Shown here: one piece after another, positions 8,509-27,592 of the stretch
Layout of the letters: each line of letters opens with the position of its first letter
Numbering within the stretch: position 1 is the first letter of the stretch
Source of the DNA: an uncultured beta proteobacterium
Lineage (GTDB): Bacteria; Pseudomonadota; Gammaproteobacteria; Burkholderiales; Nitrosomonadaceae
NCBI GenBank assembly: GCA_942493155.1
Contig: OW818677.1
Coordinates: forward strand, 2,169,302-2,201,301
Length of the DNA: 32,000 nucleotides
Reading direction: 5' to 3'
Position numbers and translations under genes: made by a program
The notes under the pieces: generated by a model
Told to the model about the DNA's origin: nothing
Database searches by the model: none
What the model saw: only the letters and a program-made list of their open reading frames with translations

Positions 8509-8515
8509 ATCACCA

Positions 8516-11939: not shown

Positions 11940-12670
11940 GCTGAGATAGCTTTTCTGGCAATCTCGCGATAAGTGCGCGGCTTCTTTCTCTGTGCCCGGT
12001 TACTTTTGGCATGCAGTTCATCAATGATACGCTCACTCAATTCACGCGCTTCGTTCAGCAGTCCAAGATCTGTCGGATAGCGTATGGCCTGTTCTGCAAC
12101 GGTGGCATCCAGTATTAATTTGCCGTGATTGCGCGGCTGCTCATCTGCCAAAGATTGCTCTGCTTCCATTGCGGTGGCCGCGCCGCTGCTACCTACCTCA
12201 CCGCTATTTGACACATCATCGTCGTTGTCATCATCACTTGCTTTGACTGACTTCTTTGTCCGCCTAGGTTCAACCGTTTCGATGATCGACTCATGAAATT
12301 CATCGAATACCGTCTGACCCATGCGCTTGCGTATCTCAACCAGTAATGATGACGCAAACGGCGCCTTCGCTTGAAAACCTTTCAGGCCAATAAAATATTG
12401 CAGGTACGGATTCTCTCGAATCTGTTCAACCGTCTCTTCATCTGAAATCGATAATTTATGTTTAATAATCACCGCTCCAATCACAATCCTGGCATCTTTG
12501 GCTGGGCGGCCCAGATTTGAACATAACGTCTTATAGTAGCTCTCGGACAACTCATCCCACGGTAGGCAATCCCTCAGTTTTACCCAGCGATTAGTGGGAT
12601 CTAGAATCATGCCGGGCGGTGTATCAAATCCTTCGAGGGGCAGTTGCTTTTGGCTGACGTAACGAATCAT
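11927..12670 (-). CDS. IS5-family transposase, N-terminal part (InsH/DUF772-like)
   Basis: NRWVKLRDCLPWDEL...GRPAKDARIVIGAVIIKHKLSISDEETVEQIRENPYLQYFIGL is an InsH-type N-terminal domain. Confidence 0.8.
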   Translation of the reverse strand: MIRYVSQKQLPLEGFDTPPGMILDPTNRWVKLRDCLPWDELSESYYKTLCSNLGRPAKDARIVIGAVIIKHKLSISDEETVEQIRENPYLQYFIGLKGFQAKAPFASSLLVEIRKRMGQTVFDEFHESIIETVEPRRTKKSVKASDDDNDDDVSNSGEVGSSGAATAMEAEQSLADEQPRNHGKLILDATVAEQAIRYPTDLGLLNEARELSERIIDELHAKSNRAQRKKPRTYREIARKAISAWSS

Positions 12671-13451
12671 AGTGCACGGTTTTTGGTGTTAATTCACATA
12701 TTTATGTGCACTATTCTACCAAAAAACAAAATATTAATAAATTCAATCAGCTAGTTATACTTTTTGAGTAAGCTCTAACTATGTATTCAATGGCACTCTA
12801 TGTGCTCTTCAAGGTAATGCTGAAAGTCGTGTTCCAACTGCCTCCGATTGGGATTCCAAGCAATCATTGCTGAATGATCAGCGCTTTGTACCTGAACTGA
12901 ATGAGAAGGGCGCGGATATTCCAACCGGCATACCCACCTTAACGCCCAACCAGAAAAAACAGCTCGGCCTTGATTCCGTACCTACCAAGGATTCAAGCGG
13001 CAATATCACAGGGCGCGAAGATACCACTACCGAAATTGAAGCCGTAGACGCTGGAACCTCTGATAATCCCGGCCGTGTCATCATCAAGGAAACTAAGACC
13101 ACGATTAAATATGACACCAACAACACGCAGATAAGCAGCACCACCAATACCAGCTACAGCTCTCAGCCACAAGAAAAAGAGCCGTCACAATTCACCATAT
13201 CATTCGACACCGTACCCGAAGCCACATTACCCAGTTACAGCGTCCCTAATACCTTCAACTCAGATAGTTGGGGTTCTGGCACTTGTCCGCCCAATATCGA
13301 CGTATCACTAACCAATCATTCTTTCACCATACCGACACAGCCAATCTGTGACACGGCGGAAATGATTAACCCATTTACGCTGTTACTGGCTTCAATCATC
13401 AGTGTCTACATTATCGCGGGGGTTCGTGGCGGCTCTGCCACGTAAAAAACT

Positions 13452-13742
13452 ATGTTCAATATCTTAATTCCTTTAGGTGCTTTTCTTTCGGCTGGTGTTG
13501 GTTTCCTTGCTGTACGTGCTTTGATGGGTGTAGGTGTCGGCTTAATCAGTTATGGCGCGGTCGGTGTTGTTCTGCAGCAGCTTCTAACCTTAGCGCAAGG
13601 CCATTACAACAACATTCCAGCATTCGCGCTGCAAATCGCCGGACTCTCAGGCATTGGCCAAGCGCTCGGCATGATCGCTGGTGCCATTACTTTCAGGGCT
13701 ACTTTTATGTTGATGTCTAAACTCGGAGTGATTCCAAAATGA
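13452..13742 (+). CDS. Inovirus g6p-like small membrane protein (DUF2523-like), unit A
   Basis: 96-aa hydrophobic protein directly upstream of zot, overlapping it by 4 nt. Differs from 22383-22673 at one residue. Confidence 0.7.
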   Translation: MFNILIPLGAFLSAGVGFLAVRALMGVGVGLISYGAVGVVLQQLLTLAQGHYNNIPAFALQIAGLSGIGQALGMIAGAITFRATFMLMSKLGVIPK

Positions 13743-14707
13743 CGATTATCGTTTTAACGGCTACGCCGGGCTGTGGCAAAACCAATCACGCGGTATGGAG
13801 CTATATTAAACCAGCGGTGGAAGCGGGGCGTGTTGTCTATGTTTGCGGTGTTCCGGATTTAAAGCTAATGCATATCAAGCTATCCATTGCCAAGCTCAAT
13901 ACCTGGGCAGAACGCACACCCCTAGACCCGGAAGAACCAGAAGGAAAGCAAAAACTAAACAACATCTTGGAAGGTAGTCTTATTGTAGTGGATGAAGCTG
14001 CTTATCCTTGGCCGGCGGTTGACCTGAAAGACCCTCCGGAATATATCAAATACTTAAGCCAGCATAGAAAGCACGGCTTAGACTTCCTTGTTATTACTCA
14101 ATCACCGAAGTTCGTGCATCCGTTTGTATTGGAAAATGCCGACCGGCATATCCATTTAAGCCAAGAGTGGTCAGGCTCAAAAAGCTACGAATGGCCGGAA
14201 TACTGCGCCAATCCAAAACTCAAGACCAACAAGCAGAATGCAGTCAAAAAGCCGTACCGGCTCGTTAAGGAAGCATTCCCGCTGTATTACTCAGCAAGTC
14301 TGCATGTGGAAAAACCGAAGCGGGCGATACCTAAAATGGTCTATGCGGCTATTTTTCTGCTCTTTGCAGTGCCAGCTATGGCCATGTTCACATATGGCCG
14401 TGTAACTGAACGCCTTGAGTCTCCAATGGCATCGACTGAAACTGAAAAAAACACAATAACGAAGCAGAGGGGTGATATACCGCCAGCAAGCTTAATACCG
14501 GTCTCTCAGCCTGTCGTAGCATTGCCGAGTACAAAAGAATCGCTCTCAATGTTATCAAATGCGGTTGACTGGTCACAAGTGGCCGCCTGTGTTGCAAATA
14601 AAACTAATTGCGTTTGTTATGGGCATCAGGCTCAACGTTTGAATATTGTTCCAGATACTTGCAATGCTGCAATAAGTTATGGGTGGATCGTTCCTAAAAA
14701 ACTTTAA
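13739..14707 (+). CDS. Zot/pI-like filamentous phage assembly ATPase, unit A
   Basis: Walker A ATPGCGKT, Walker B LIVVDEA and a central TM helix (VYAAIFLLFAVPAMAMFTY). About 26 differences in 322 aa from the unit B copy, counted by eye. Confidence 0.85.
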   Translation: MTIIVLTATPGCGKTNHAVWSYIKPAVEAGRVVYVCGVPDLKLMHIKLSIAKLNTWAERTPLDPEEPEGKQKLNNILEGSLIVVDEAAYPWPAVDLKDPPEYIKYLSQHRKHGLDFLVITQSPKFVHPFVLENADRHIHLSQEWSGSKSYEWPEYCANPKLKTNKQNAVKKPYRLVKEAFPLYYSASLHVEKPKRAIPKMVYAAIFLLFAVPAMAMFTYGRVTERLESPMASTETEKNTITKQRGDIPPASLIPVSQPVVALPSTKESLSMLSNAVDWSQVAACVANKTNCVCYGHQAQRLNIVPDTCNAAISYGWIVPKKL

Positions 14708-14790
14708 AGGAATAATAAAACATACGTGAAAATTATGCTTTATTGAAACATGTCTTCAATCATTCCATAGCCAGAAAAAATCGAAGACAT

Positions 14791-15089: not shown

Positions 15090-15257
15090 GAATGCGCACA
15101 CAGTTTTTTACAATAAACATAAAAATAAACTTCAGAAGATAATCTCGCCACAAATTGTTGTGAATTTCAATAAGTTTCTAGATCTTTTAAACCGTAAAAT
15201 TTTTTAGCCTGTAGCCCCAAGGGTCGCGCCGCCGACCGGCGCGAAGGGTATGCACCC

Positions 15258-15328
15258 AAAAGGGGGCATGCTGCCCGATCCCTAACGCAGTCTATCTTTA
15301 TTCTGATTTCCCCCTTATTGCTAAACAG
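15258..15328. repeat. Copy 1 of an approximately 70-bp element shared by the two cargo regions
   Basis: AAAGGGGGCATGCTGCCCGATCCCTAACGCAGTCTATCTTTATTCTGATTTCC... aligns with 25365-25432 at roughly 80 percent identity by eye. A GC-rich hairpin (TCGCGCCG-CCGAC-CGGCGCGA, 15224-15244) precedes it. Confidence 0.8.
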
Positions 15329-15386: not shown

Positions 15387-15593
15387 ATGGAGCTTTCCGC
15401 CGTATTAACACCAGCGCCAGAAGGTGGTTATGTTGCCTTCAATCCTGAAACCGGAACGACCACGCAAGGCGACACAGTTGAAGAAGCTTTGGCTAATTTG
15501 GCTGAGGCAACAGAACTCTTCCTTGAAGAATTTCCGATGACCATATCTGCCCGCTCATTATTGACAACCTTTCAAGTTGCAGAGCATGCCTAA
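15387..15593 (+). CDS. hicB: HicB-family antitoxin (UPF0150-type, 68 aa)
   Basis: PEGGYVAFNPE..GTTTQGDTVEEALANLAEA is HicB/UPF0150-like. The adjacent hicA remnant supports the call. Confidence 0.75.
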   Translation: MELSAVLTPAPEGGYVAFNPETGTTTQGDTVEEALANLAEATELFLEEFPMTISARSLLTTFQVAEHA

Positions 15594-15953: not shown

Positions 15954-17063
15954 ATGTCAAAATATGTAGAAGAACTGGAAACAGAATTAAACGATGAGCG
16001 TAATGTTGAAGATGAGGCTGCTGAAGATGAAGCGGAAACTTTTGGTCGCTATGATATCACTTCCTATGGAATAGATTTTGATGTCGCAGGTTTAGTCAGG
16101 AGAATCGAAAAAGGTTTAATTTTTATTCCACCTTTTCAGAGAAATTTCGTCTGGAAACTTCCTGAATCTTCTCGTTTAATAGAATCATTATTGTTAGGTT
16201 TACCAGTCCCAGGAATATTTTTAGCTCAAGAGGCAGATACTGGAAGAATGTTAGTTATAGATGGCCAACAAAGACTTTTATCCTTAAAATTCTTTTTTGA
16301 CGGGGTATTTAATCCTATAGAAGGCGAGAAAAGACAAAGAGTTTTTAAGCTATCGAAAGTTCAACCACAGTATGAAGGAAAGTCATATAAAGACCTTGCC
16401 CCAAATATTCAAAACGATTTAGAGAATTGCGTTATTCATGCGACTGTTGTAAAACAGGACGCTCCTGAAGATGACGACACTAGTATTTACCATATTTTTG
16501 AGCGCTTGAATTCAGGTGGAAGAAAATTATCTCAGCAAGAAATTAGAACCGCAATTTATCATGGAAATTTTATCAATAAAATTCATGATCTTAATTCTCA
16601 TAAATCATGGCGCCTTATTTATGGCCGCATCAACGATAGGATGAAGGATCAGGAGTTAATTATTCGCTTTTTTGCAATGTTAAATAACTATTCTTCATAC
16701 GAAGCTCCAATGTACGACTTTTTGAATAAATTTGCTAAGAAACATCGTAACGATAAAAATCAAATTCTAAGTGAGTACTCGGAACACTTTAAAGTTTGTT
16801 GTGATATTTTTCTAAAAGCCATTGATGGAAGACCATTTCGTCGAACCGTTGCAATTAATGTCGCATTATTCGAAGCTGCTATGGTAGCTCTTACAGAAAA
16901 AATACGCCGTGATGGCATACCAACTTCAGAAGTTGTTAGGAATAAATACAATGCTTTATTAATGGATAATGAATTTATTTCAGCTATTTCACAATCTACA
17001 GGCAATAAATCTACTGTACTCACTCGAATTGATACAGCAAAAAAAATATTCCTGAATGATTGA
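15954..17063 (+). CDS. DUF262 (ParB-like NTPase/nuclease superfamily, GmrSD N-terminal type) protein without a DUF1524 nuclease domain
   Basis: IPPFQRNFVW, VIDGQQRL and FERLNSGGRKLSQQEI are DUF262 hallmarks. ATG 15954 is preceded by GGGAG, and an upstream in-frame start at 15891 is possible. No H-x-x-P/HNH-like C-terminal motif was seen. Confidence 0.8.
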   Translation: MSKYVEELETELNDERNVEDEAAEDEAETFGRYDITSYGIDFDVAGLVRRIEKGLIFIPPFQRNFVWKLPESSRLIESLLLGLPVPGIFLAQEADTGRMLVIDGQQRLLSLKFFFDGVFNPIEGEKRQRVFKLSKVQPQYEGKSYKDLAPNIQNDLENCVIHATVVKQDAPEDDDTSIYHIFERLNSGGRKLSQQEIRTAIYHGNFINKIHDLNSHKSWRLIYGRINDRMKDQELIIRFFAMLNNYSSYEAPMYDFLNKFAKKHRNDKNQILSEYSEHFKVCCDIFLKAIDGRPFRRTVAINVALFEAAMVALTEKIRRDGIPTSEVVRNKYNALLMDNEFISAISQSTGNKSTVLTRIDTAKKIFLND

Positions 17064-17554
17064 TGAAAAACGTAAATCTTAATCAACAATATCAAAAGAT
17101 ATTGCATTTAATAAATAATACGGATAAATCTACTCATGGAGATATAGAGTTACAGGGACATTGGGGAAAGTATTTGTGCGTTCTAGTAGCAGGTTTTCTG
17201 GAGAATGCTATTATCGCCGTTTACTCAGATTTTGTTTCTGGCGCAGCATCTCCTCATGTCTCACAATTCACATTAGTAAACTTAGAAAAGATTCAAAACC
17301 CAAAGACTGAAAAATTTATACAAGTTGCTATTCAATTTAAGAAAGACTGGGGCGAGGAATTAAAAAATTATTTCATTAGTCATCCGGACAAAAAAGCAGC
17401 CATCGATTCGATTATGACTAATAGACATTTAGTTGCACATGGTAAATCAACAAGTATATCTGTACACAGAGTGAGAGAATATTTAACTCTCAGTATAGAG
17501 GTAATAGAATTTATAGAGGATATGTGTGCAAATAAAAAAAGCAAATTAAGATGA
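17063..17554 (+). CDS. HEPN-domain protein (MAE_28990-like), putative RNase effector
   Basis: Rx4H motif in TNRHLVAHG near the C-terminus. HWGKYLCVLVAGFLEN resembles the AHWEGF helix of MAE_28990-type HEPN domains. The start ATG overlaps the DUF262 stop (TGATG). Confidence 0.7.
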   Translation: MKNVNLNQQYQKILHLINNTDKSTHGDIELQGHWGKYLCVLVAGFLENAIIAVYSDFVSGAASPHVSQFTLVNLEKIQNPKTEKFIQVAIQFKKDWGEELKNYFISHPDKKAAIDSIMTNRHLVAHGKSTSISVHRVREYLTLSIEVIEFIEDMCANKKSKLR

Positions 17555-17559
17555 TTTGA

Positions 17560-17988
17560 CTAAAGAAAGCTTCTTTGTAATATCATTCCAAATCGGCTTT
17601 CAAGTACCAGCTGACGCCTATAAAAATCAGCCTTAATTTCAAGTCTATTAATTGCCTCGCTATGCTTCTCATTATCTTTTTTTAAAATTTCGATTTCACG
17701 TTTTAAACTAGAAACCTGCTGAACTTGCCAGAATAATGCCCTAATTTCATGAGGAGTTAGACCGCGCCGCCATTCGGGTATATATAATAGATTATTTCTG
17801 AAGTAGTGCCCATTCCAATCTGTACCCAATAAAGCACTCGCTTCACCTAGAATATACAATCTCAAGAGACGGGTTGCTGATTCTGAGATCTTCTTAGTTC
17901 CTTTTTTCCATTGCTTAATTGTTTTTTGACTTTCTCCTGTAATTCTTTCTATTTCTTGGCAGTCGATGTTTTTTATTAAATCTTCCAT
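17560..17988 (-). CDS. 142-aa phage regulatory protein (HTH-like N-terminus, coiled-coil C-terminus), last gene of unit A
   Basis: Gap-free paralogue of 26658-27086, with 91 of 142 residues identical by hand alignment. Shared blocks are EIERITGE, WKKGTK, RLLRL, PEWR, PHEIRALFW and KADFYRRQLVLESRFG. Confidence 0.6.
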   Translation of the reverse strand: MEDLIKNIDCQEIERITGESQKTIKQWKKGTKKISESATRLLRLYILGEASALLGTDWNGHYFRNNLLYIPEWRRGLTPHEIRALFWQVQQVSSLKREIEILKKDNEKHSEAINRLEIKADFYRRQLVLESRFGMILQRSFL

Positions 17989-18199: not shown

Positions 18200-18577
18200 C
18201 TATTTTACATAATACAAATTGATCTCACTCCCTTTTTCTGACATAGCAGCATGGGCAGGGGAGGAAGTCATTGAACTACCACCGAAAATTAATGCCGCCG
18301 CCGCTATAGTCGCAGCTCTAGAAAAACAACTTTTAAAAATTTTTATCTTTTCTTCGTCTTTCTCAGTAACAAGATTACTTGCAGCAATAACTTCAAGTCT
18401 ATCCGCACCAATATAGTCAGCGAGTTTTATACAAATATCTGCGGGCAAGCCTCTTCTTCCGCTTTTAACTATCCTTATATAACTATCTGGAATCCCTAGA
18501 ATTCTTGCTAATTCTATTTGCTTTCCGGCTTTTTCCTCACCCAATTCTAGGTATTTTTTCATTTCCATAGTATTCAT
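18200..18577 (-). CDS. XRE-family HTH repressor with a hydrophobic C-terminal segment
   Basis: QIELARILGIPDSYIRIVKSGRRGLP is a Cro/C1-type HTH. The gene is divergent from the replication operon. Its last nine codons lie inside the dif-like site. Confidence 0.75.
   Translation of the reverse strand: MNTMEMKKYLELGEEKAGKQIELARILGIPDSYIRIVKSGRRGLPADICIKLADYIGADRLEVIAASNLVTEKDEEKIKIFKSCFSRAATIAAAALIFGGSSMTSSPAHAAMSEKGSEINLYYVK
18202..18229 (-). other. dif-like Xer recombination site at the junction of units A and B
   Basis: The reverse complement is AGTGAGATCAA-TTTGTA-TTATGTAAAAT. Its XerD arm matches E. coli dif (TTATGTTAAAT) at 10 of 11 positions. Homology with the 27339 region stops exactly here. 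Confidence 0.65.
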
Positions 18578-18583
18578 GTCCTA

Positions 18584-18645
18584 TTGACAGTTACAAACGC
18601 AACTGATAATTTCAGTTACGTTTGTATCGGATCCATTTGTAACTG
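18584..18645 (+). promoter_or_regulatory. Divergent promoter/operator region of unit B
   Basis: TTGACA (18584-18589) and GATAAT (18605-18610). The motif CAGTTAC occurs three times: 18588 and 18613 direct, 18639 inverted. Each copy carries AAACG or CGTTT/TTTG flanks. Confidence 0.55.
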
Positions 18646-18697
18646 CATTTGTTCGCATATTACGGCTCAGATTTCCATAAGTCAAGGAAGGGTATTC

Positions 18698-18985
18698 ATG
18701 AGAAACATTAAAAATAGTTATTTTCGAGCAATTCATGAAGTAACTTGCAACGGTAAATTACCGGAGTATTCCGATTTGTGGCGCTGCTACCATCCTACTG
18801 CTTTGATGCTGGATAGCGATTATTGCCTATTTGCAGATTCAAGCCGGTTTTCGACGACGACGCAGGAGGAGGAGATAACCGGCAGCGCACCTAAAAAAAT
18901 ACTTTACGTCCCAGTTACACGTAAAGTTAGTCTCACAGATGAGACAAAAGAGCAAAAATTGAACGCTGGAATGATTCAAAGATGA
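18698..18985 (+). CDS. Hypothetical 95-aa phage protein upstream of Rep
   Basis: ATG preceded by AAGGAAG. Its stop overlaps the Rep start (ATGA). Confidence 0.5.
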   Translation: MRNIKNSYFRAIHEVTCNGKLPEYSDLWRCYHPTALMLDSDYCLFADSSRFSTTTQEEEITGSAPKKILYVPVTRKVSLTDETKEQKLNAGMIQR

Positions 18986-19992
18986 TGAATTTAATTCCTG
19001 TCTTTGTCGACTATTTAACTATCCGACAAGTGCATGACGGCGGCAAACTGCCAATCATTAATGGTGGTAGGGTGCTCAGAATTGATTCGGATGGCGAGAT
19101 TGAATATACCGTGGATACTCGGCAAGGCTTGGAAGGTAGTTTTGATAGCCGGGTAGAAGTTCGCTGTGATGGTCATCAAGTGGAATTCAGTGGCAATATT
19201 TCTCGCTATGGCCGACAAGATAATCTTTTCGGTTTTACTTTCGCGGATAGTATCGAACGGATTAATGAACTGCTAAAAACTCTGGGTTTGCCGCCTTTTA
19301 CTGCTGGCAAATTATACAAATTTGCTGATTCTGGCTGGACATGGACAGGTGCCAGAGTCAGCCGGATAGACATAACCTGCAATTATGTCACCGGCTCTAT
19401 GGTCGACTCCGAAGCATTACTCCGAAATATGGCAGGTCACCATATTGGCCGCCAAAAAGGCTCCCTAGCGGTTAATGGCGCAACAGTTGAATATGGCCGG
19501 GGTTCCAAATATGTTTACGGCAAACTCTACTGTAAAACCACTGAACTAAAAAAACACCGCTCCAAAAAATCCGGTCAACACGTCACTGAGGAAGTTATCG
19601 ACTTTTGCCAATCTCTCGGAGTAATACGAGAAGAGTTTACCCTTAAATCGCGCTTTCTTCTACAAAACGGCCTGGCTTTTCTAGGCGCAATAACCGACTC
19701 ATTATTGATTGAGGTTTATATGAACAGAACACAATTACAACGACTGGAGAACGTGAAATACGAGAATTTCAGCGATTTACCAGCACACCTAAGAGCAACG
19801 TATGTCAGTTGGAAATATGGTTACCCAATCGATCTTTCACGGGCTGCATTTTATCGTCATCGTAAAGCTTTGCTTTCCTACGGTATAGATATCTCCATTC
19901 CAAACAACGTTCAAACGATGCCAATTAAAGTGAAAACTATCGAACTGGCTGCACTTACAGCGCCTGACTGGTACATCAAGAAATACGCTTAA
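18982..19992 (+). CDS. Rolling-circle replication initiation protein (filamentous phage gene II/X, Phage_CRI-like)
   Basis: Call rests on position, size (336 aa), and N-terminal DYLTIRQ and RIDITCNY blocks resembling Phage_CRI-type initiators. Not verifiable without a search. Confidence 0.6.
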   Translation: MMNLIPVFVDYLTIRQVHDGGKLPIINGGRVLRIDSDGEIEYTVDTRQGLEGSFDSRVEVRCDGHQVEFSGNISRYGRQDNLFGFTFADSIERINELLKTLGLPPFTAGKLYKFADSGWTWTGARVSRIDITCNYVTGSMVDSEALLRNMAGHHIGRQKGSLAVNGATVEYGRGSKYVYGKLYCKTTELKKHRSKKSGQHVTEEVIDFCQSLGVIREEFTLKSRFLLQNGLAFLGAITDSLLIEVYMNRTQLQRLENVKYENFSDLPAHLRATYVSWKYGYPIDLSRAAFYRHRKALLSYGIDISIPNNVQTMPIKVKTIELAALTAPDWYIKKYA

Positions 19993-20067
19993 TTTTTAGT
20001 TTTACGCTCTGAATTCATTAACTGCCGGTTCAGATAAAGCGTTAATAGGTGGTGTTAAGGGGTTGTT

Positions 20068-20364
20068 ATGTTAGAGAAAGTAAAAGTGACAGGTATCACA
20101 TTCTTCAAAGATACCATCGACGGAAAGCCAATTGATTCAGGCGCGGCATTTGTTGAAGAACATTTGAATTTCCAGACGGGCAGGTCAAAGGGCACTGCAA
20201 CACAAAAATACCCGTTAGGCGATGCAGGCAAAGCACAAGCCCTGATGCACCTGGAATTTCCTCTGATCTGTGAAGTTGAATTTGTTCGTGTAACTAATGG
20301 CAATGTTTCCAAGAATATAATCAACTCAATTAAACCGGTTTCTCAAGTTAAACCTGCCGCGTGA
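20068..20364 (+). CDS. Putative ssDNA-binding protein (gene V analogue)
   Basis: 98-aa ORF between Rep and the major coat gene. The call is by position only. Confidence 0.4.
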   Translation: MLEKVKVTGITFFKDTIDGKPIDSGAAFVEEHLNFQTGRSKGTATQKYPLGDAGKAQALMHLEFPLICEVEFVRVTNGNVSKNIINSIKPVSQVKPAA

Positions 20365-20439
20365 TTTCAGCCTATACGCTCTTAGTTGGGGCGTATGGGG
20401 TGCAATTCCGCACCATTTAAACTTAAAGGAGTATTCAAT

Positions 20440-20715
20440 ATGTTTAGCAAAATAAAAAACTGGTTAATTTCTGCAAAAGACGCTGTGATAGCGCTCGGTC
20501 GCCGTGTAGTACAAAAAACCAAACGTTATGTTGCCGCTTTCTTCCTAACCTTCGGTATCACTTTTGGTTTTCTCTCTCCGGTTCACGCTGACGTACCCGC
20601 CGGTGTAACCACTGCCATCACAACCGCCGCAACCGATGTTGCAACCGTAGGTGCCGCCGTCATTCTCGTGTTCGTCGGCATCAAAGTCTGGAAATGGATT
20701 AAAGCCGCTCTGTAA
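20440..20715 (+). CDS. Inovirus major coat protein precursor
   Basis: ATG preceded by AAAGGAG. Leader ends in VHA. The predicted mature peptide is DVPAGVTTAITTAATDVATVGAAVILVFVGIKVWKWIKAAL: acidic N-terminus, hydrophobic core and basic C-terminus. Confidence 0.8.
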   Translation: MFSKIKNWLISAKDAVIALGRRVVQKTKRYVAAFFLTFGITFGFLSPVHADVPAGVTTAITTAATDVATVGAAVILVFVGIKVWKWIKAAL

Positions 20716-20716
20716 C

Positions 20717-21013
20717 ATGGCTTATCTGTATCAGGGAAAATGTCTTGATACCGTGCAGCGGCTACATGAATCTGTGGCCGCTGCATGTCCACCCGTATCC
20801 GGCAATTACTCCCTTCAATGTACGCCAACAAGCACGCAAGTCGATATTGTCGCTGCCGACCTCACGAACTCTATCATTTATTCCAGTGTGCTTGTTCCTC
20901 CTCAAATTCCCTGTGATGTAACCCTATTGGATCAAACCGCCTTTTACTGGCAATTAGTCGGCGTTTTGGTCGCGGGTTTCGCTATCCGGGCACTGATACA
21001 GGTCTTTAAATAA
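20717..21013 (+). CDS. Putative minor virion/membrane protein (98 aa, C-terminal TM helix)
   Basis: The ATG lies 1 nt after the coat gene stop. C-terminal YWQLVGVLVAGFAIRALIQVF. Confidence 0.5.
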   Translation: MAYLYQGKCLDTVQRLHESVAAACPPVSGNYSLQCTPTSTQVDIVAADLTNSIIYSSVLVPPQIPCDVTLLDQTAFYWQLVGVLVAGFAIRALIQVFK

Positions 21014-21087
21014 TGGAACTCTGGATTGTTGACTTGGGTTATATGCTGGCTTTCTTAGGTGCGCTATGGCTTATCTTTACCGCTTAA
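21013..21087 (+). CDS. Possible 24-aa hydrophobic minor coat protein (g7p/g9p-like micro-ORF)
   Basis: TAATG overlap with the preceding stop. Product is MELWIVDLGYMLAFLGALWLIFTA. Below the ORF-track size cut-off and found by hand. Confidence 0.3.
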   Translation: MELWIVDLGYMLAFLGALWLIFTA

Positions 21088-22376
21088 TAGTTATTTTAAT
21101 CATTGCATTACCAAACCTTGTTAATGCTCAATCTGCGCCAGTCGGTGCCATCGATCTGGCCGGATGGATCAAGGGCGCTGACGGTGCTTATTCTCGGGCT
21201 TTCGCTGATGGTGCCGGATCCAGAGCAACACCAACCAATTCCACAATAAATAGCACATCTACCGCGTTGGTTCAGACATCCAAAGGCTTGCAGTCCTTCG
21301 ATATCCAAAAAATTGCTGCTGTCGATGTGAACCGGGTAGGCGCCGCGGTGGCCAATTTAGCCAAGCGGGTTGGACCAGTCGGCATGACCTTGACGGCCGC
21401 ATCACTGGTTTGTGAACTGACTACTATCTGCAATCAAGCCGGACAATGGATGCTCGGTGCCGATCCTGCTTTTGAAGGTTTTCCAACCACAACACCAAAT
21501 TATAAATGGGGTGGTTATGGTGGTTATTATCCTAGCCCTGAAATAGCATGTAATGCTGCTGTGAAAGTCCATTATAACGGCGCATATTCTGCTAACCCTG
21601 CGCCTTACAATGGACAAGATAATTATTATGATTGTCATTATAAGGATGCTAATGGTAATCCTACTTATATTTCTGGCTATTCTCCCCGTTCGGCTGGTTG
21701 CCCTGATAACTATGTATTCAATGGCACTCTATGTGCTCTTCAAGGTAATGCTGAAAGTCGTGTTCCAACTGCCTCCGATTGGGATTCCAAGCAACCATTG
21801 CTGAATGATCAACGCTTTGTACCTGAACTGAACGAGAAGGGAGCGGATATCCCGACCGGCGTTCCCACATTAACGCCCAACCAAAAAAAGCAGCTTGGCC
21901 TTGATTCTGTTCCAACCAAAGACAGCAGCGGCAACATAACAGGGCGCGAAGATACCACTACCGAAATTGAAGCCGTAGACGCGGGAACCTCTGATAATCC
22001 CGGCCGCGTCATTATTAAGGAAACCAAGACCACGATCAAATATGACACCAATAATACGCAGATAAGCAGCACCACCAATACCAGCTACAGCTCGCAGCCA
22101 CAAGAAAAAGAGCCGCCACAATATACGATTTCATTTGATAGCGTGCCAGAAGCAACGCTTCCAAGTTACAGCGTACCCAATACCTTCAGTTCAGATAGTT
22201 GGGGCTCCGGCACTTGTCCGCCCAATATCGATGTATCGCTAACCAATCATTCTTTCACCATACCGACACAGCCAGTCTGTGACACGGCGGAAATGATTAA
22301 CCCTTTCACGCTTCTTTTGGCTTCAATCATCAGCGTCTACATTATCGCGGGGGTTCGTGGCGGCTCTGCTACGTAA
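21066..22376 (+). CDS. g3p-like minor coat/adsorption protein (intact copy)
   Basis: Signal peptide (LIIALPNLVNA), Cys-containing N-terminal domain, T/S/N-rich linker and C-terminal TM anchor (LLLASIISVYIIAGV). Lies upstream of g6p and zot. Confidence 0.7.
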   Translation: MAYLYRLIVILIIALPNLVNAQSAPVGAIDLAGWIKGADGAYSRAFADGAGSRATPTNSTINSTSTALVQTSKGLQSFDIQKIAAVDVNRVGAAVANLAKRVGPVGMTLTAASLVCELTTICNQAGQWMLGADPAFEGFPTTTPNYKWGGYGGYYPSPEIACNAAVKVHYNGAYSANPAPYNGQDNYYDCHYKDANGNPTYISGYSPRSAGCPDNYVFNGTLCALQGNAESRVPTASDWDSKQPLLNDQRFVPELNEKGADIPTGVPTLTPNQKKQLGLDSVPTKDSSGNITGREDTTTEIEAVDAGTSDNPGRVIIKETKTTIKYDTNNTQISSTTNTSYSSQPQEKEPPQYTISFDSVPEATLPSYSVPNTFSSDSWGSGTCPPNIDVSLTNHSFTIPTQPVCDTAEMINPFTLLLASIISVYIIAGVRGGSAT

Positions 22377-22382
22377 ATAACT

Positions 22383-22673
22383 ATGTTCAATATCTTAATT
22401 CCTTTAGGTGCATTTCTTTCGGCTGGTGTTGGCTTTCTAGCAATCCGTGCATTGATGGGCGTAGGTGTCGGCCTTATCAGTTATGGCGCGGTCGGTGTTG
22501 TCCTGCAGCAGCTTCTAACCTTGGCGCAAGGCCATTACAACAATATTCCAGCCTTCGCGCTGCAAATCGCCGGACTCTCTGGCATTGGCCAAGCGCTCGG
22601 CATGATCGCCGGTGCCATTACTTTCAGGGCTACTTTCATGTTGATGTCTAAACTCGGAGTGATTCCAAAATGA
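22383..22673 (+). CDS. Inovirus g6p-like small membrane protein (DUF2523-like), unit B
   Basis: 96-aa hydrophobic protein that overlaps the zot start. Confidence 0.7.
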   Translation: MFNILIPLGAFLSAGVGFLAIRALMGVGVGLISYGAVGVVLQQLLTLAQGHYNNIPAFALQIAGLSGIGQALGMIAGAITFRATFMLMSKLGVIPK

Positions 22674-23638
22674 CAATTATCGTTTTAACGGCTACGCCGG
22701 GCTGTGGCAAAACCAATCACGCGGTATGGAGGTATATAAAACCAGCGGTGGAAGTGGGGCGTGTTGTTTATGTTTGCGGTGTACCTGACTTAAAGCTCAT
22801 GCACATCAAGCTATCGATAAATAAGCTCAATACCTGGGCAGAACGCACACCCCTAGACCCGGAAGAACCGGAAGGAAAGCAAAAACTAAACAACATCTTG
22901 GAAGGTAGTCTTATTGTAGTGGATGAAGCTGCTTATCCGTGGCCGGCCGTTGACTTGAAAGACCCGCCCGAGCATATCAAATACCTAAGCCAACATAGAA
23001 AGCACGGCCTGGACTTCCTTGTTATTACTCAGTCACCGAAGTTTGTGCACCCGTTTGTACTGGAAAACGCTGATCGGCATATCCATTTAAGCCAAGAGTG
23101 GTCAGGCTCAAAAAGCTATGAATGGCCGGAGTACTGCGCCAATCCAAAGCTGAAAACCAACAAGCAGAATGCAGTCAAAAAGCCGTACCGGCTCATCAAA
23201 GAAGCATTCCCGCTGTATTACTCAGCAAGTCTGCATGTGGAAAAACCGAAGCGGGCGATACCTAAAATGGTCTATGCGGCAATTTTCCTGCTCTTTGCAG
23301 TGCCAGCTATGGCGATGTTCACTTATGGCCGTGTAACCGAGCGGCTTGAGTCTCAAATCGCATCCACAGAAACCGAAAAAAACACAATAGCGAAGCAGGG
23401 GGGTGATACGCCGTCAACAAGCGCAATACCGGTATCTCAGCCTGTCATTGCATTACCGAGTACAAAACAATCGCTCTCAATGCTTTCTGATGCGGTCGAT
23501 TGGTCGCAGGTCGCGGCCTGTGTGGAAAACAAAACCAACTGCGTTTGTTATGGGCATAAAGCGCAACGCTTATCCATTGTTCCGGAAACCTGCCAAGCGG
23601 CCGTGAAGTATGGATGGATTGATACTAAACAACTTTAA
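22670..23638 (+). CDS. Zot/pI-like filamentous phage assembly ATPase, unit B
   Basis: Walker A ATPGCGKT, Walker B LIVVDEA and a TM helix. Confidence 0.85.
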   Translation: MTIIVLTATPGCGKTNHAVWRYIKPAVEVGRVVYVCGVPDLKLMHIKLSINKLNTWAERTPLDPEEPEGKQKLNNILEGSLIVVDEAAYPWPAVDLKDPPEHIKYLSQHRKHGLDFLVITQSPKFVHPFVLENADRHIHLSQEWSGSKSYEWPEYCANPKLKTNKQNAVKKPYRLIKEAFPLYYSASLHVEKPKRAIPKMVYAAIFLLFAVPAMAMFTYGRVTERLESQIASTETEKNTIAKQGGDTPSTSAIPVSQPVIALPSTKQSLSMLSDAVDWSQVAACVENKTNCVCYGHKAQRLSIVPETCQAAVKYGWIDTKQL

Positions 23639-23648
23639 AGGAGTAATT

Positions 23649-23819
23649 ATGAAACAGACGCAGGAAAGATTTAATTATCTAATGGAAACACTTGATGAGC
23701 AGAGAATGTCAATTCTTCTTGATGACTTAACACCCGAGGAAAGAGAAGCTACCAATGCAATAATTGCCGATCTTGAAGCAGAACTCGAAGAATATGGTTT
23801 AAATATCTCCAGTAGCTGA
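23649..23819 (+). CDS. Small, strongly acidic 56-aa protein
   Basis: ATG preceded by AAAGGAG. Product is MKQTQERFNYLMETLDEQRMSILLDDLTPEEREATNAIIADLEAELEEYGLNISSS. Unit A keeps only a degenerate trace of its 5' end (14708-14730). Confidence 0.5.
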   Translation: MKQTQERFNYLMETLDEQRMSILLDDLTPEEREATNAIIADLEAELEEYGLNISSS

Positions 23820-23895
23820 TATCCGAAGAAGGTTCCGAGGCTTGACCGAAGGTCAAACGTAGGAATTCCGGATTCAGCGTCAACGGGTTACAACT

Positions 23896-23925
23896 GGCGC
23901 TCGGCCATGCCGAGCCGCCGCTTTT
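23896..23925 (+). terminator. GC-rich hairpin followed by a T-rich tract after the structural operon
   Basis: GGCGCTCGG-CCATG-CCGAGC(C)GCC, then GCTTTTACGTTT. A smaller hairpin, TTGACC-GAA-GGTCAA, lies at 23842-23856. Confidence 0.5.
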
Positions 23926-24121
23926 ACGTTTAAAATCCCCTTTTTTTACAGAACGGTTTATATTTCATGTTGCTGCGGTAAAAATCCATTCTTTGCTCTT
24001 GCTTGTTAAACCAAGTTTCGTCCTAAATATCGATTCTATTTTTGAAATGCAATTTTAAATTCCATCAGAATTGTTATCATGTAATATCGCATTATCTTTG
24101 TATCTTCAATGAGGCGATCAT

Positions 24122-24850
24122 TTGTTAATTGAGTCCCTGGAGTCATTACGATCTCGCGTTATCACTGACTTTTGTGCAGTAATGGAGTTTAAGCTTTACA
24201 CCGACCTCGCCTACATATTAAGTGGAGAATATACAAAATCAATTCCTGGGGGTGAATTTATTATTGACTATCCAGCTATTGCTCCGTTTCTCAGCCTTGC
24301 ACCAAATATAATTAACCCATATGAATTGCCTCATCGCCTCGAACAAGCTAAAAATAGCTACCTGTTACTACTTGTTCATCAACAACAGGTTGCGATATTT
24401 GAGAACTCTTTCTTCGATATACTGCGCACTCTATTTATTGATCAACCATTAAGGTTACCCAATAAACAGCGTCAAATTGAATATTCCATAATTATCAATG
24501 CTCAAGATAAAGATGAGATTATTTTTGCCCTTATTGAAAAAGAAATAAACGAAATTAAATATAAAAATGTTAAAGATTGGTTTAAATACTTAGAAAATCT
24601 TGTTTCCAAATATAAGATTACCGACTCTGATCTGGGACGAATCGCGGAAGCAAAAGCAACACGTGATTTATTTGCACACAATGCTGGAATCGTAAACGAA
24701 ATCTATTTACAAAAGGCCGGAAATTTTGCGCGCTTTAAAATTGGTGAGAGCGTTTCAGTAGAAGGAGATTATATGCGCGATACTTGGGTAGTATTTTCAA
24801 GGGTGTTGATCTTAATTTTAGATCTTCTTATAAAAAAATATAAAACTTAG
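24122..24850 (+). CDS. HEPN-like protein with Rx4H motif (242 aa), cargo of unit B
   Basis: ATRDLFAHNAG gives R-x4-H followed by N. The upstream helix VAIFENSFFDIL is in the same relative place as HWGKYLCVLVAGF in the 17063 protein. TTG start is preceded by GAGG, and ATG 24182 is an alternative. Confidence 0.55.
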   Translation: MLIESLESLRSRVITDFCAVMEFKLYTDLAYILSGEYTKSIPGGEFIIDYPAIAPFLSLAPNIINPYELPHRLEQAKNSYLLLLVHQQQVAIFENSFFDILRTLFIDQPLRLPNKQRQIEYSIIINAQDKDEIIFALIEKEINEIKYKNVKDWFKYLENLVSKYKITDSDLGRIAEAKATRDLFAHNAGIVNEIYLQKAGNFARFKIGESVSVEGDYMRDTWVVFSRVLILILDLLIKKYKT

Positions 24851-24916
24851 ACAAATAATATTGCTTTAACTGAACTCTTTTTTACATGTAAGCTATATCT
24901 AATTGGTATTTCTACA

Positions 24917-25336
24917 ATGACAAGACCTTCAATTTCATTTTTTGTATTGATTATGATGCTATTGACTATTAATCCGGCGCTAGCGCTGTCAGATTATAGG
25001 TGTTTGATTCAAAGAATCATAACAGCAGAGGAGCAGTCACAAAAGCTAACATTTTATGAAAAAAATTACTTAAATAAAGAATTTACCGTTGAGCGAAGTA
25101 CTGGATTAATGGCTGGCGCTTTGAAGAACTCATACGTCACAAAGCCTCAAGTCATTGATTATGGCTCACATGAAAATTCATTTAAAGTTATAACAACCAT
25201 GCGCTTAGAGCAAGGTGTCGGCTTGGGATCGAATGTATATATGCTCACTATTAACGAATATTCTGAATCCTCAAAGAAGCCCTTTGTTTTTATCGATAAT
25301 GATGTTGTTTACCTTGGAGAATGTGTCCATTTTTAG
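24917..25336 (+). CDS. Secreted/periplasmic hypothetical protein (139 aa)
   Basis: Signal peptide FFVLIMMLLTINPALA-LS. Two cysteines. No motif recognised. Confidence 0.5.
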   Translation: MTRPSISFFVLIMMLLTINPALALSDYRCLIQRIITAEEQSQKLTFYEKNYLNKEFTVERSTGLMAGALKNSYVTKPQVIDYGSHENSFKVITTMRLEQGVGLGSNVYMLTINEYSESSKKPFVFIDNDVVYLGECVHF

Positions 25337-25364
25337 AGCTACAGCTCGAAGTGTATTCTCCCTA

Positions 25365-25432
25365 AAGGGTGCATGCTGTCCGATCCCTAACTCGGTTTAT
25401 CTTTATTCTGACTTCCTCATTTTGCTGAACGA
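25365..25432. repeat. Copy 2 of the approximately 70-bp element shared by the two cargo regions
   Basis: AAAGGGTGCATGCTGTCCGATCCCTAACTCGGTTTATCTTTATTCTGACTTCC... aligns with 15258-15328. Confidence 0.8.
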
Positions 25433-25482
25433 TTTTATTAATAAAGCAAACAAACATCAGTAATAATTTGCACAAGAATTAT

Positions 25483-25608
25483 TTATTTCTTGGGTATATG
25501 ATCCCTAACGAGACGTGGAGATGGTGGTGGAGGTGGAGGCGGTGGTGATGAGGTTTTATGATCACCTCCCGAGGGGTTTGATGGAGGTTTTTTTTGATTA
25601 TCAGTCAT
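25483..25608 (-). CDS. 41-aa polyproline micro-ORF (MTDNQKKPPSNPSGGDHKTSSPPPPPPPPSPRLVRDHIPKK)
   Basis: Hand translation. It starts 9 nt after the previous micro-ORF. The two start contexts are near-identical (AAAACAAAATGA). No clear Shine-Dalgarno sequence. Confidence 0.3.
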   Translation of the reverse strand: MTDNQKKPPSNPSGGDHKTSSPPPPPPPPSPRLVRDHIPKK

Positions 25609-25617
25609 TTTGTTTTA

Positions 25618-25755
25618 TTACTTAGGTTGTATAAGATTTCCGGGCTTTTTAACTATTTCTACACCTTCTTTAATTTGTCTCATAGCAGGTGGAGGTGGAG
25701 GTGGAGGAGCTGCATTAGGTTTTTTTATCGCGGAGTTTTCCTTAGTATCATTCAT
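25618..25755 (-). CDS. 45-aa polyproline micro-ORF (MNDTKENSAIKKPNAAPPPPPPPAMRQIKEGVEIVKKPGNLIQPK)
   Basis: Hand translation. Its ATG overlaps the stop of the upstream membrane-protein gene (ATGA). AAGGA lies 10 nt upstream. Confidence 0.4.
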   Translation of the reverse strand: MNDTKENSAIKKPNAAPPPPPPPAMRQIKEGVEIVKKPGNLIQPK

Positions 25756-26477
25756 TTTGTTTTTTCCTTTTGCTCATTTTTCAACTTATCGTTTGAAATA
25801 GCAGTCTCTAAATTTTCTTGACTTTTTTTAGTGAGCTCCAAAATTGCGTTTGATAAAACATCTGCTGATTCTCGAAGGGATATTATATTACCATCATTTA
25901 GTGTAATGGGACTAATAACTGAAACTTGAGAAATTTTTGTGCTCTGATCTTTTTCAAGATTACCTAAAAAAAAAGCAAGAAATGATATAAATGCAATTGC
26001 CACTGTATAGACAATTTGTCTATTTGTTTTATGAAGATTTAGCAAACGGAGATCGTTGTTTCGAGTATTTATTGATGAACATTCAACATAACTTCTCATT
26101 AAAAATTCCGTAAAATATTTGGAAGCCAAATCTACATCTTCAGAATATGGCTGATACATTTCTATAAGTTTATTACGATATTCTTCAGTCTCACATGCTG
26201 TTGGTAAAAATGAATATGTATAGTTGTACCATGATCTTATAAAAAAGAATATTGCACTTATCAAAATTGAAAATGTGATCGCTATTGATATTAAAAAAAT
26301 AATTTCAGCAGTAGAATATGATTTATGTTCATAATTCTGCAATAAAAAAGATAGCAACCCTACAATGGAAATAATAATGGTTAAAGGTATTTGTAATCGA
26401 GAGTTTAATTTTTCCCTTGTTTCTATTTCATGAAAGTACAATTTTTCATAGAGTTCAATAACTTGTTTTTTTTGCAT
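25752..26477 (-). CDS. Three-TM membrane protein of unknown function (241 aa), cargo of unit B
   Basis: TM helices are LTIIISIVGLLSFLL, IIFLISIAITFSILISAIFFFI and IVYTVAIAFISFLAFFLG, with a soluble insert between TM2 and TM3. Very AT-rich. Confidence 0.6.
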   Translation of the reverse strand: MQKKQVIELYEKLYFHEIETREKLNSRLQIPLTIIISIVGLLSFLLQNYEHKSYSTAEIIFLISIAITFSILISAIFFFIRSWYNYTYSFLPTACETEEYRNKLIEMYQPYSEDVDLASKYFTEFLMRSYVECSSINTRNNDLRLLNLHKTNRQIVYTVAIAFISFLAFFLGNLEKDQSTKISQVSVISPITLNDGNIISLRESADVLSNAILELTKKSQENLETAISNDKLKNEQKEKTK

Positions 26478-26657
26478 TATTTTTATATTATTTTTAAAAT
26501 TTAATTGCTCAAGGATATCAAATATGTGATTAACTTTGTAACTGCTTGTAATCTAGTCGTCGATGCAATATAAATAGTGGAATGATTAAACACACAGAAA
26601 CTTTTCCCTTCCATATGGTCATGGTTAAGGATTTTCTAAGCGTGCTCCGTGATTTTG

Positions 26658-27086
26658 TTAAGAAAAACTCTTATGCAAAATCCACCCGAACCGACTTTCA
26701 AGCACCAACTGCCGCCTATAGAAATCAGCTTTAACCTCAAGATTATTAATAACTTCATCACGCTTTTCCATTTCCAGCTTCAAAAAATCAATTTCTCGCT
26801 GTAAGCTCCAAATCTGCTGACATTTCCAGAATAAAGCCCTTATCTCATGCGGTGCAAATCCATTCCGCCACTCAGGAACATAAAACAAATTACCCACGAA
26901 GCGATATCCTTTCCATTCATCACCCAATAAAGCACTTGCATCACCAGTAAGATGCAGCCTTAAAAGCCTTAGCGTTGATTCTGGAATTGGCTTAGTTCCT
27001 TTTTTCCATTTCTTAATTACTTTTAGTTCTTCACCGGTAATTCTTTCTATTTCTTCTATGTTGATGCCATATAGTAGCTCGTTCAT
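26658..27086 (-). CDS. 142-aa phage regulatory protein, last gene of unit B (paralogue of 17560-17988)
   Basis: Gap-free alignment with 17560-17988, 91 of 142 residues identical. Confidence 0.6.
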   Translation of the reverse strand: MNELLYGINIEEIERITGEELKVIKKWKKGTKPIPESTLRLLRLHLTGDASALLGDEWKGYRFVGNLFYVPEWRNGFAPHEIRALFWKCQQIWSLQREIDFLKLEMEKRDEVINNLEVKADFYRRQLVLESRFGWILHKSFS

Positions 27087-27338
27087 TTTCTCAACCTAAA
27101 AGTAAAAACCAATCATTGCAAATTTCAAATGGTTTTCATTTCGATAAAAGAGACACGACAAGCAACGTATTCAGAAGTTGTTATTGCTTGTCGGATATGG
27201 GGATATTGAATGTGGAATGTTATTTTGAAAGGGTGGACAAATGATCAAAGCTGGTATTTTTGCACCCGTTGAGAAGCCTATCTAGGAATTCAGAAAATTT
27301 ATCGTATTTTCTGCGGAATTTATTTCTACGATTATTCA

Positions 27339-27366
27339 ATTTAACATAATACAAATTATCGGCAAT
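27339..27366 (-). other. dif-like Xer recombination site at the right end of the prophage array (possibly the reconstituted chromosomal dif)
   Basis: The reverse complement is ATTGCCGATAA-TTTGTA-TTATGTTAAAT. The XerD arm matches E. coli dif at 11 of 11 positions, and the whole site matches GGTGCGCATAATGTATATTATGTTAAAT at 22 of 28. Confidence 0.65.
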
Positions 27367-27592
27367 TACTTTATAATTTTTGCGGAATAGTTTTGCTCCA
27401 GACAGGATTTAAAAATGTTTTGTTATTTTGTAAATAGGCATTCTTTGCATTTTATGGAAATTCTGCAATTTCTCGGCTTCAATAGTTTCTGGATCAATGT
27501 TTTTTTATGGCTTCCGGTCAAGCTGTCTTTGCTTGAATTGAGGTTCAAGTATGGCTTTTTGGAAAATTACCTAGAAGAAAGGAAGAAGCCAA

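Follow-up and report, generated by a model that had tools for sequence, protein, structure and literature searches.

A putative solo HEPN-type ribonuclease gene in the variable cargo region of a filamentous Nitrosomonas prophage

Described solo HEPN proteins and the gene under study

It is established that HEPN effectors occur in defence islands, that solo HEPN proteins such as HepS exist and that HEPN genes are found in integron cassettes. HepS ('HEPN Solo') is an abortive-infection protein of the Salmonella Gifsy-1 prophage. It forms an autoinhibited tetramer, and a phage tail-tip protein is the trigger which opens this inactive state (PMC13043305). Esos is an integron cassette which contains a HEPN-like gene only and defends V. 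cholerae (bioRxiv 10.1101/2024.07.02.601686). A family called 'Integron cassette HEPN', represented by PDB 3jrt, was noted in 2013 (PMC3710099). Here we analyzed a gene for a HEPN-like protein of 242 amino acids (aa), referred to as the focal gene. It is located in a filamentous prophage, here named unit B, on a 32,000 nucleotide (nt) stretch of contig OW818677.1 from an uncultured member of the Nitrosomonadaceae. The whole stretch is referred to as the window; it also contains a sister prophage, here named unit A, with a 164-aa HEPN protein of its own.

The focal gene shares with HepS that a single HEPN-type protein of less than 250 aa is encoded as accessory cargo of a prophage, with no partner and no antitoxin. 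However, the phage in the window is filamentous and dif-integrating, whereas that of HepS is lambdoid. A likeness of the two proteins in sequence or structure was not detected: no PDB chain was matched by the profiles of the focal family and HepS was not among the Foldseek matches listed, its presence in the searched PDB set being unconfirmed. The resemblance to Esos, compared by its description, and to the integron-cassette HEPN proteins concerns a homologue named P0018, a HEPN-type gene which stands alone and is mobile as a cassette; the copy in the window, in contrast, is prophage cargo. The structure 3jrt was not matched at E <= 10 by two profiles of the family (A1 and A2) and was not among the Foldseek matches listed. 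As far as the sequences can tell, none of HepS, Esos and 3jrt appears to be detectably of the same family as the focal protein.

The overall best explanation, to which we give somewhat better than even chances, is that the focal gene encodes a ribonuclease (RNase) of an unannotated HEPN branch. This protein would act as a self-contained effector of abortive infection or superinfection exclusion. The predicted enzyme would be a metal-independent endoribonuclease. R181, D182 and H186, where helix 3 ends, and E94 of helix 2 would form its active site, which the second subunit of a dimer would most likely complete, by analogy with other HEPN enzymes. The gene is carried as AT-rich foreign cargo in the hypervariable interval between zot and the gene of a XafT-like Xer recombination activation factor, in a dif-integrating Nitrosomonas phage. 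Its product would be made in an inactive, autoinhibited oligomeric state. An infection cue would then switch the protein on, host or phage RNA would be cleaved, and a dedicated antitoxin would not be needed.

Conservation of the motif and relation to the HEPN superfamily

The start codon of the focal gene is preceded by the Shine-Dalgarno sequence GAGG at 24111-24114 with a spacing of 7 nt. The GC content of the gene is 0.347 as compared to 0.464 for the phage backbone. The original prediction of a HEPN-like protein was based on the segment ATRDLFAHNAG, placed about 60 residues from the C-terminus, and on an upstream helix segment (VAIFENSFFDIL). Both were found as described: the first contains R181 and H186 and lies 61 residues from the C-terminus, and the second comprises residues 90-101.

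A bare Rx4H in a single sequence is weak evidence at the level of chance. It occurred in 13% of 20,000 composition-preserving shuffles of the 242-aa protein, Rx4-6H in 33% and the stricter R-[NDH]-x3-H in 1.5%. The significance of the motif therefore derives from its conservation across homologues and not from its presence in one sequence. In 22 homologues with identities down to 39%, the residues R181, D182, H186, N187 and G189 were invariant, as were E176, A177, K178 and A179. Among 98 divergent representatives R181 and H186 were each present in 97, so that Rx4H is indeed conserved among homologues, a check which had been proposed with the prediction. Position 182 was occupied by D (90 representatives) or N (8), and position 94 by E (93) or D (4). 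Past the motif, N192, Y195, K198, R204 and Y217 were invariant as well. The extended invariant motif of the family reads E-x-K-A-x-R-D-x3-H-N-x-G-x2-N-x2-Y.

The family is large. A word-indexed search yielded 24 homologue clusters, which increased to 75 with a profile, and none of them carried a Pfam annotation. An exhaustive search with a hidden Markov model (HMM) of 1.84 billion representatives, clustered at 50% identity, recovered 2,985 clusters at E <= 1e-3, of which 704 had E <= 1e-10. Members originated from Vibrio, Aeromonas, Litoribrevibacter, Nostoc, many Planctomycetota and others. Nothing above threshold was obtained from Pfam, NCBIfam, PHROGs or PADLOC with the window protein and 22 or 98 aligned relatives, and the long members (300-430 aa) contained no informative fused domains.

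HEPN domains are defined as a four-helix up-down bundle of two hairpins with an insert between helices 2 and 3, a conserved Rx4-6H with a polar N, D or H following the R, and, in helix 2, a further acidic residue that is conserved (PMC3710099). The conserved R181 and H186, the D or N at position 182 and the acidic residue E94, located inside helix 66-107, all correspond to this definition. Additionally, the motif takes the expected position in the predicted structures, since H186 is the last residue of helix 168-186 and a loop (187-192) comes next. The AlphaFold model of the full-length protein was all-alpha with a predicted local distance difference test (pLDDT) score of 91.3 and a predicted template modelling (TM) score of 0.87; a core-only model reached a pLDDT of 94.7. 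Its helices H1 (2-38), H2 (66-107), H3 (168-186) and H4 (217-241), with a helical insert at 108-167, are arranged in an order that fits the HEPN layout.

Sub-threshold matches were enriched for HEPN families. The best Pfam match of the window protein was Csx1_HEPN (E = 0.096) and the best PADLOC match CARF_HEPN (E = 0.0014), neither of them significant and both covering residues 131-200. Among the relatives, weak matches were found to RnlA DBD, HepT-like (3 members), HEPN_Cthe2314 and HEPN_MAE_28990, and in PADLOC to CARF_HEPN, RTasHEPN and Csx1/Csm6.

A link to a described HEPN family was provided by a divergent branch, here named A7. Profile comparison leaves no doubt that A7 and the focal family are homologous (HHalign probability 99.9%, E = 3.6e-36). 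Two of its members, P0247 and P0075, matched the Pfam family HEPN_RiboL-PSP (PF18735) at E = 6.4e-5 and 2.9e-3, both below the gathering score. These matches coincided with the region covered by the family profile (77-241 vs 88-219 and 114-282 vs 94-226, respectively). When A7 was aligned to RiboL-PSP by HHalign (92 columns, P = 0.021), the helix-2 acidic residue and R-N-x3-H were both in register, the A7 equivalent of E94 (F-D) being aligned to the invariant E48 of RiboL-PSP-HEPN. The motifs were also in register between the profile A2 and a four-sequence RiboL-PSP alignment (P = 0.088).

The focal family and RiboL-PSP-HEPN thus have in common the R-[ND]-x3-H at a helix end and the acidic residue of helix 2. 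Furthermore, the RiboL-PSP-HEPN protein of unit A is encoded in the same phage cargo region. In contrast to RiboL-PSP-HEPN, the focal protein is about 80 residues longer and has, according to the model, a long N-terminal helix and a larger helical insert. The extended invariant motif is a further difference, and the window protein had no PF18735 match at E <= 1.

Several results weigh against the proposed explanation. Foldseek searches of the PDB with the full-length and the core model (pLDDT 91 and 95) gave no significant match, neither to HEPN nor to other structures, and the sole HEPN protein listed was Las1 (E = 1.8). When the protein and the profiles A1 and A2 were compared to the PDB sequences by phmmer and hmmsearch, spurious matches only were obtained (short-chain dehydrogenase, LAGLIDADG and similar), and no HEPN chain, 3jrt included, was recovered. 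No member reached the curated Pfam threshold, the best score being 23.4 bits as compared to the PF18735 cut-off of 28.4 bits. The HHalign P values of 0.021 and 0.088 are modest and were obtained with a thin comparator alignment. This alignment consisted of only 4-5 plasmid or metagenome sequences, since scans of metagenomes and viruses found no relatives of the 164-aa HEPN protein of unit A. Finally, the family was missing from the IMG/VR viral contigs and the phage collection searched. In these two sets, the latter screened by megablast of 18500-27500, there were no relatives of the element or the 139-aa protein encoded next to the focal gene either. In BFVD, Foldseek matched two uncharacterised tailed-phage proteins only, A0A8S5NVI2 (E = 1.8e-8, TM 0.72) and A0A8S5LJP3 (E = 3.5e-3). 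The fold therefore occurs in tailed phages, though sequence relatives were absent from IMG/VR.

The focal protein might accordingly not be a HEPN nuclease but have a distinct all-alpha fold, in which E-x-K-A-x-R-[DN]-x3-H-N-x-G has a different chemical role or binds a ligand and the resemblance to HEPN arose by convergence. Confident models without a significant Foldseek match to the many HEPN structures of the PDB would fit this alternative, as would the lack of a curated profile at threshold among about 130 members scanned. Moreover, Rx4H is short and common by chance, and the invariant residues from N192 to Y217 lie outside the HEPN definition. However, the structures of HEPN proteins are known for their divergence, and small helical bundles are a difficult target for 3Di searches. 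In addition, all testable sequence and secondary-structure features of the definition (PMC3710099) were present, the recurrent weak matches were concentrated in HEPN families, two divergent members matched HEPN_RiboL-PSP in the homologous region, and HHalign placed both catalytic landmarks in register. We therefore regard a convergent, unrelated fold as improbable.

Based on the conserved R-[DN]-x3-H, the acidic residue in the helix, the position of the motif at a helix end and the transitive link to RiboL-PSP, the focal family very probably belongs to the HEPN superfamily. It may be described as a large unannotated HEPN branch, distantly allied to the RiboL-PSP-HEPN group. With respect to motif, helix and transitive link the original HEPN reading is retained. 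However, the lack of a HEPN-like fold in structure or profile searches, which had been named as a refuting outcome, was observed in part, as Foldseek detected none in the PDB and the window protein itself had no significant profile match. Likewise, the assignment to a named HEPN family envisaged there did not succeed, because no such family fits at threshold.

Solo and partnered members of the family

Both open reading frames (ORFs) of the original prediction, the focal gene and the gene following it, agree in coordinates and spacing with the ORF list (Table 1). As proposed, the downstream gene encodes a signal-peptide protein with a pair of cysteines. Its N-terminus is hydrophobic, with the Kyte-Doolittle value peaking at 3.0 across residues 6-18, an A-L-A site of the cleavage type is present, and C29 and C136 are the only cysteines. 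To characterize the gene neighbourhoods, the ORFs located up to 2.5 kb from a family member were clustered for all fetched loci. No homologue of the 139-aa protein was found beside any other family member. Homologues with 37% identity were present on Pseudomonas IncP plasmids, where they are located amid unrelated small genes with no HEPN-like neighbour. Judged from these neighbourhoods the 139-aa protein is not a conserved partner of the focal protein, and its suggested role as a companion was given up.

The same data bear on a two-gene system, in which the exported protein would detect an event at the envelope or in the periplasm, such as the entry of a filamentous or another phage, and would then pass a signal to the cytoplasmic RNase or set it free. 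Both genes are encoded on the same strand at a short distance, no strong terminator between them was found in the scan, and their GC contents are similar (0.347 and 0.355). They also occurred together on all 13 contigs with an identical 242-aa protein. However, these contigs are no independent cases of co-occurrence because all of them represent the same element. The absence of the 139-aa protein from all other family contexts and the plasmid-borne homologues with unrelated neighbours also argue against such a system, as does the lack of an obvious route from a soluble exported protein to a cytoplasmic enzyme. We consider it very unlikely.

An ORF of 242 aa with a signal peptide (…LLLLMINPAFAISDY…) was observed downstream of zot in a sister phage (L076:4944-5672, + strand). 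Its leader is closely similar to that of the 139-aa protein of the window (…MMLLTINPALALSDY…), while the remainder of the protein differs, which hints at a shared leader of exported cargo.

In eight distinct proteobacterial contexts of the family no shared immediate neighbour was detected by a relaxed all-vs-all comparison. Additionally, the homologue P0018 (41% identity) was the only ORF of a V. parahaemolyticus integron cassette. In this locus (L014) the gene (620-1348) is located between an attC site at 400-526 and the next one at 1345-1438, which overlaps the stop codon, leaving only 94 nt upstream of the gene. For these two reasons the gene is, as far as its neighbourhoods indicate, genuinely solo in Proteobacteria. 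From the single-ORF cassette it further follows that the proteobacterial clade would need no adjacent antitoxin.

Other types of partners were not found either. The absence of a DUF262 partner, as claimed initially, agreed with the ORF list and the Pfam scan of the window, and no DUF262 gene adjoined the focal gene or any homologue in the loci examined. The focal family is thereby distinguished from the PD-T4-2-type system, as it lacked a DUF262/ParB partner in every context examined. Type III-style RNA-antitoxin repeat arrays and Rfam matches were not found. Beside the homologue P0011, an SMC_N/AAA_15 ATPase and a HEPN_Swt1+DUF499 protein were observed (L013:5205-9490), a probable defence island.

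A different arrangement was present in a distant clade, mostly Planctomycetota and including Tundrisphaera lichenicola. Here, at least 17 loci (L022-L040) have an acidic ORF of about 80 aa directly upstream, encoded on the same strand and with a gap of -1 to -22 nt in most of them; in L024 and L027 it is duplicated. The protein has the consensus MIDxTTxKPLxVSTDGxAGPYIxVP...YWVDE..ISLDG.PE...VQ.LLDSIP and no Pfam family, and it is a candidate for a new antitoxin. This layout resembles toxin-antitoxin systems and therefore suggests that the HEPN-like protein is potentially toxic. As in HepT/MntA and RnlA/RnlB, a small gene abuts the HEPN-like gene upstream. However, the 80-aa partner is neither an MNT nucleotidyltransferase nor RnlB, and the clade of the window lacks it: a six-frame HMM search of the window and of L001-L021 did not recover the partner. 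A conserved adjacent small gene, as typical of type II toxin-antitoxin systems, was thus found in the distant clade only and not in the window.

The partnered clade has to be considered when asking whether the focal gene is the toxin of a prophage addiction module, which would stabilise the prophage rather than defend its host. The antitoxin would then be the 139-aa protein or a strongly acidic 56-aa ORF, which is located directly after zot and could, as a weak candidate, have a local role as antitoxin or regulator. An addiction module would be in line with the tightly coupled, classic type II layout of the distant homologues and with the confinement of the 56-aa ORF to phages with the focal cargo. 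Toxin-antitoxin-like genes (a HicB-like ORF and a RES-domain protein) are also found in the same region of sister phages. If the 56-aa ORF were an antitoxin, the focal gene would not be truly solo here, which is a further point to be held against the proposed explanation.

However, no relation exists between the 56-aa ORF and the 80-aa partner, for which the six-frame search of the window gave nothing. It is located 302 nt upstream of the focal gene with a hairpin in between, possibly the end of the phage morphogenesis operon, although this is of low certainty. Furthermore, it is missing from the sister phages and from all other contexts of the family. The Vibrio homologue is alone in its cassette, and the signal peptide of the 139-aa protein would export it away from a cytoplasmic RNase. 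Taken together, an addiction module is an unlikely explanation.

The original prediction had raised the question of what keeps a solo HEPN protein in check. This is now less open, since HepS is self-restrained and the distant clade of the focal family has an upstream partner. The preferred explanation, a self-contained defence effector, is the most economical one, and the example of HepS makes it feasible; RNase chemistry, oligomeric autoinhibition and a defence phenotype are inferred.

The variable region between zot and the XafT-like gene

To analyze the position of the focal gene within the phage, 31 metagenomic contigs with Zot relatives (43-98% identity) were fetched and the region downstream of zot was compared in 30 loci, including L047. 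The interval from zot to the XafT-like gene differed almost every time. Among its contents were a RES-domain protein and a KAP NTPase (match to the PADLOC candidate PDC-S20, E = 3.5e-142), DUF262 together with RiboL-PSP-HEPN and, separately, a 596-aa DUF262 protein. HNH_5 with AbiGi, DUF5677, DUF3800 with DUF4238, and a RelA_SpoT protein were found as well. The focal gene was present in the unit-B-type phage only. Since sister phages fill the interval with other toxin or defence genes, it represents a cargo hotspot. An exchange of toxic or defence effectors as cassettes downstream of zot, as initially suggested, is strongly supported by this survey.

In unit A the cargo consists of a GmrSD_N/DUF262 protein matching NsnA/PD-T4-2_A (E = 1.3e-75) and the 164-aa protein (17060-17554), a bona fide HEPN_RiboL-PSP (E = 1.3e-14, 55 bits). 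The statement that the focal gene is not a copy of the unit A gene was therefore correct. The notion of an equivalent cargo slot has to be modified. Both genes are located in one variable region from zot to the XafT-like gene, but on opposite sides of an 88-bp element. As this element follows the 242-aa and 139-aa genes in unit B and precedes the DUF262 and HEPN pair in unit A, the two HEPN genes occupy different sub-positions. The cargo DNA is AT-rich with a GC content of 0.32-0.36 as compared to 0.46 for the phage backbone and 0.45 for host genes.

The features of the region are summarized in Table 1. Unit B is a filamentous phage and shares with unit A a common block of 90% identity (12776-14716 corresponding to 21707-23647). 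The names of the clusters to which zot and the flanking RND pump belong indicate a Nitrosomonas as the host, and a Vibrio host was rejected on these grounds. The XafT-like genes of both units are 70% identical (unit A copy at 17560-17988). The V. cholerae dif1 consensus had no match, and it took the XerD arm to locate a dif-like site. The two dif-like sites consist of a XerC-like arm, the spacer TTTGTA and the XerD arm TTATGTTAAAT or TTATGTAAAAT. Because a dif-like site follows each XafT-like gene, units A and B are regarded as tandem Xer-exploiting elements. The identity to metagenomic copies of the element extends to about 27751, beyond the dif-like site of unit B.

Table 1. Coordinates of features in the window and of one gene pair from the distant clade
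Feature	Position	Strand	Remarks
Unit B G2P replication protein	18982-19992		library match
Unit B DUF2523	22383-22673		library match
zot (Zot/pI-type assembly ATPase)	22670..23638	+	left border of unit B variable region; Pfam Zot E = 2.2e-16
56-aa strongly acidic ORF	23649..23819	+	directly after zot; 14 D/E vs 4 K/R
GC-rich imperfect hairpin with T-rich tail	23896..23930	+	read by eye; between 56-aa ORF and focal gene; not called by terminator scan
Focal gene, HEPN-like protein, 242 aa	24122..24850	+	ORF call; TTG start
Codon of conserved acidic E94	24401..24403	+	long helix 66-107, predicted HEPN helix 2
Predicted HEPN catalytic motif R-[DN]-x3-H-N (R181-D-L-F-A-H186-N187)	24662..24682	+	C-terminal end of helix 168-186 and start of next loop
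139-aa signal-peptide protein, adjacent cargo	24917..25336	+	66 nt downstream of focal gene; possibly co-transcribed
88-bp element	25344..25430 (unit B) = 15239-15326 (unit A)	.	83% identity; subdivides variable region
Opposite-strand cargo: 241-aa membrane protein and tandem small ORFs (45, 41 aa)	25483..26477	-	ORF list
XafT-like (VC1465-family/DUF3653) Xer recombination activation factor	26658..27086	-	right border; NCBIfam NF040522 E = 5.7e-7
dif-like XerC/XerD site ATTGCCGATAA-TTTGTA-TTATGTTAAAT	27339..27366	-	found via XerD arm
Related dif-like site after unit A	about 18202-18229	-
Example pair of the distant clade in L038	80-aa (approximate) ORF 7737-7979; HEPN-like gene 7995-8690

The 88-bp element has a short GC-rich palindrome (…ATGCACCC-AAAA-GGGGGCAT…); a terminator, a site for recombination and a signal for packaging or the origin are possible roles. 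Just after it in unit A, a 68-aa HicB-like ORF was observed at 15387-15593 on the + strand (Pfam DUF7387, E = 1.6e-6). It recurs with 82-94% identity in the sister phages L049, L057, L062-L065 and L073, and no obvious HicA partner was seen. The 241-aa protein on the opposite strand of unit B has hydrophobic segments and matched phrog_36961 (E = 1.7e-13), with weak matches to SLATT_1 (0.095) and 8xMP. The neighbouring 45-aa and 41-aa ORFs each contain 7-8 consecutive prolines, at which ribosome stalling would be expected without elongation factor P (EF-P). An insertion sequence at 10844-12776 with DDE transposase ORFs (11058-11939 and 11927-12670, - strand) interrupts the pIII-like gene of unit A. 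To its left 191 bp are 99.5% identical to unit B, whereas the identity to its right is only 90%, which suggests a recombinant or hybrid junction.

A joint reading of the family and its context is possible but tentative. The focal protein would belong to a major HEPN family that has gone unrecognised (about 3,000 clusters in Proteobacteria, Planctomycetota, Cyanobacteria and others) and that has two interchangeable regulatory states. In the two-gene form the protein would be restrained by the acidic antitoxin of about 80 aa. The solo form, small enough to be carried in single-ORF integron cassettes or as cargo of filamentous phages, would restrain itself, sense infection and execute abortive infection. 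In dif-integrating inoviruses, the stretch from zot to the XafT-like gene would then be a defence-island hotspot, through which Xer-exploiting prophages shuttle anti-phage immunity in Nitrosomonas.

As the concept of such effectors is already established, the advance would lie in a new family and a new context and not in a new principle. What is new is probably an unannotated HEPN family with partnered and solo clades in a cargo hotspot of inoviruses. If this holds true, a large unannotated family would be added to the repertoire of HEPN RNases. Its partnered and solo forms would constitute a natural pair that could show how a toxic RNase becomes self-restrained. Furthermore, dif-integrating filamentous prophages would have a slot in which defence and toxin genes are swapped in and out. 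This would bear on the dynamics of phages and hosts in Nitrosomonas, whose members oxidise ammonia in the nitrification of wastewater and soil.

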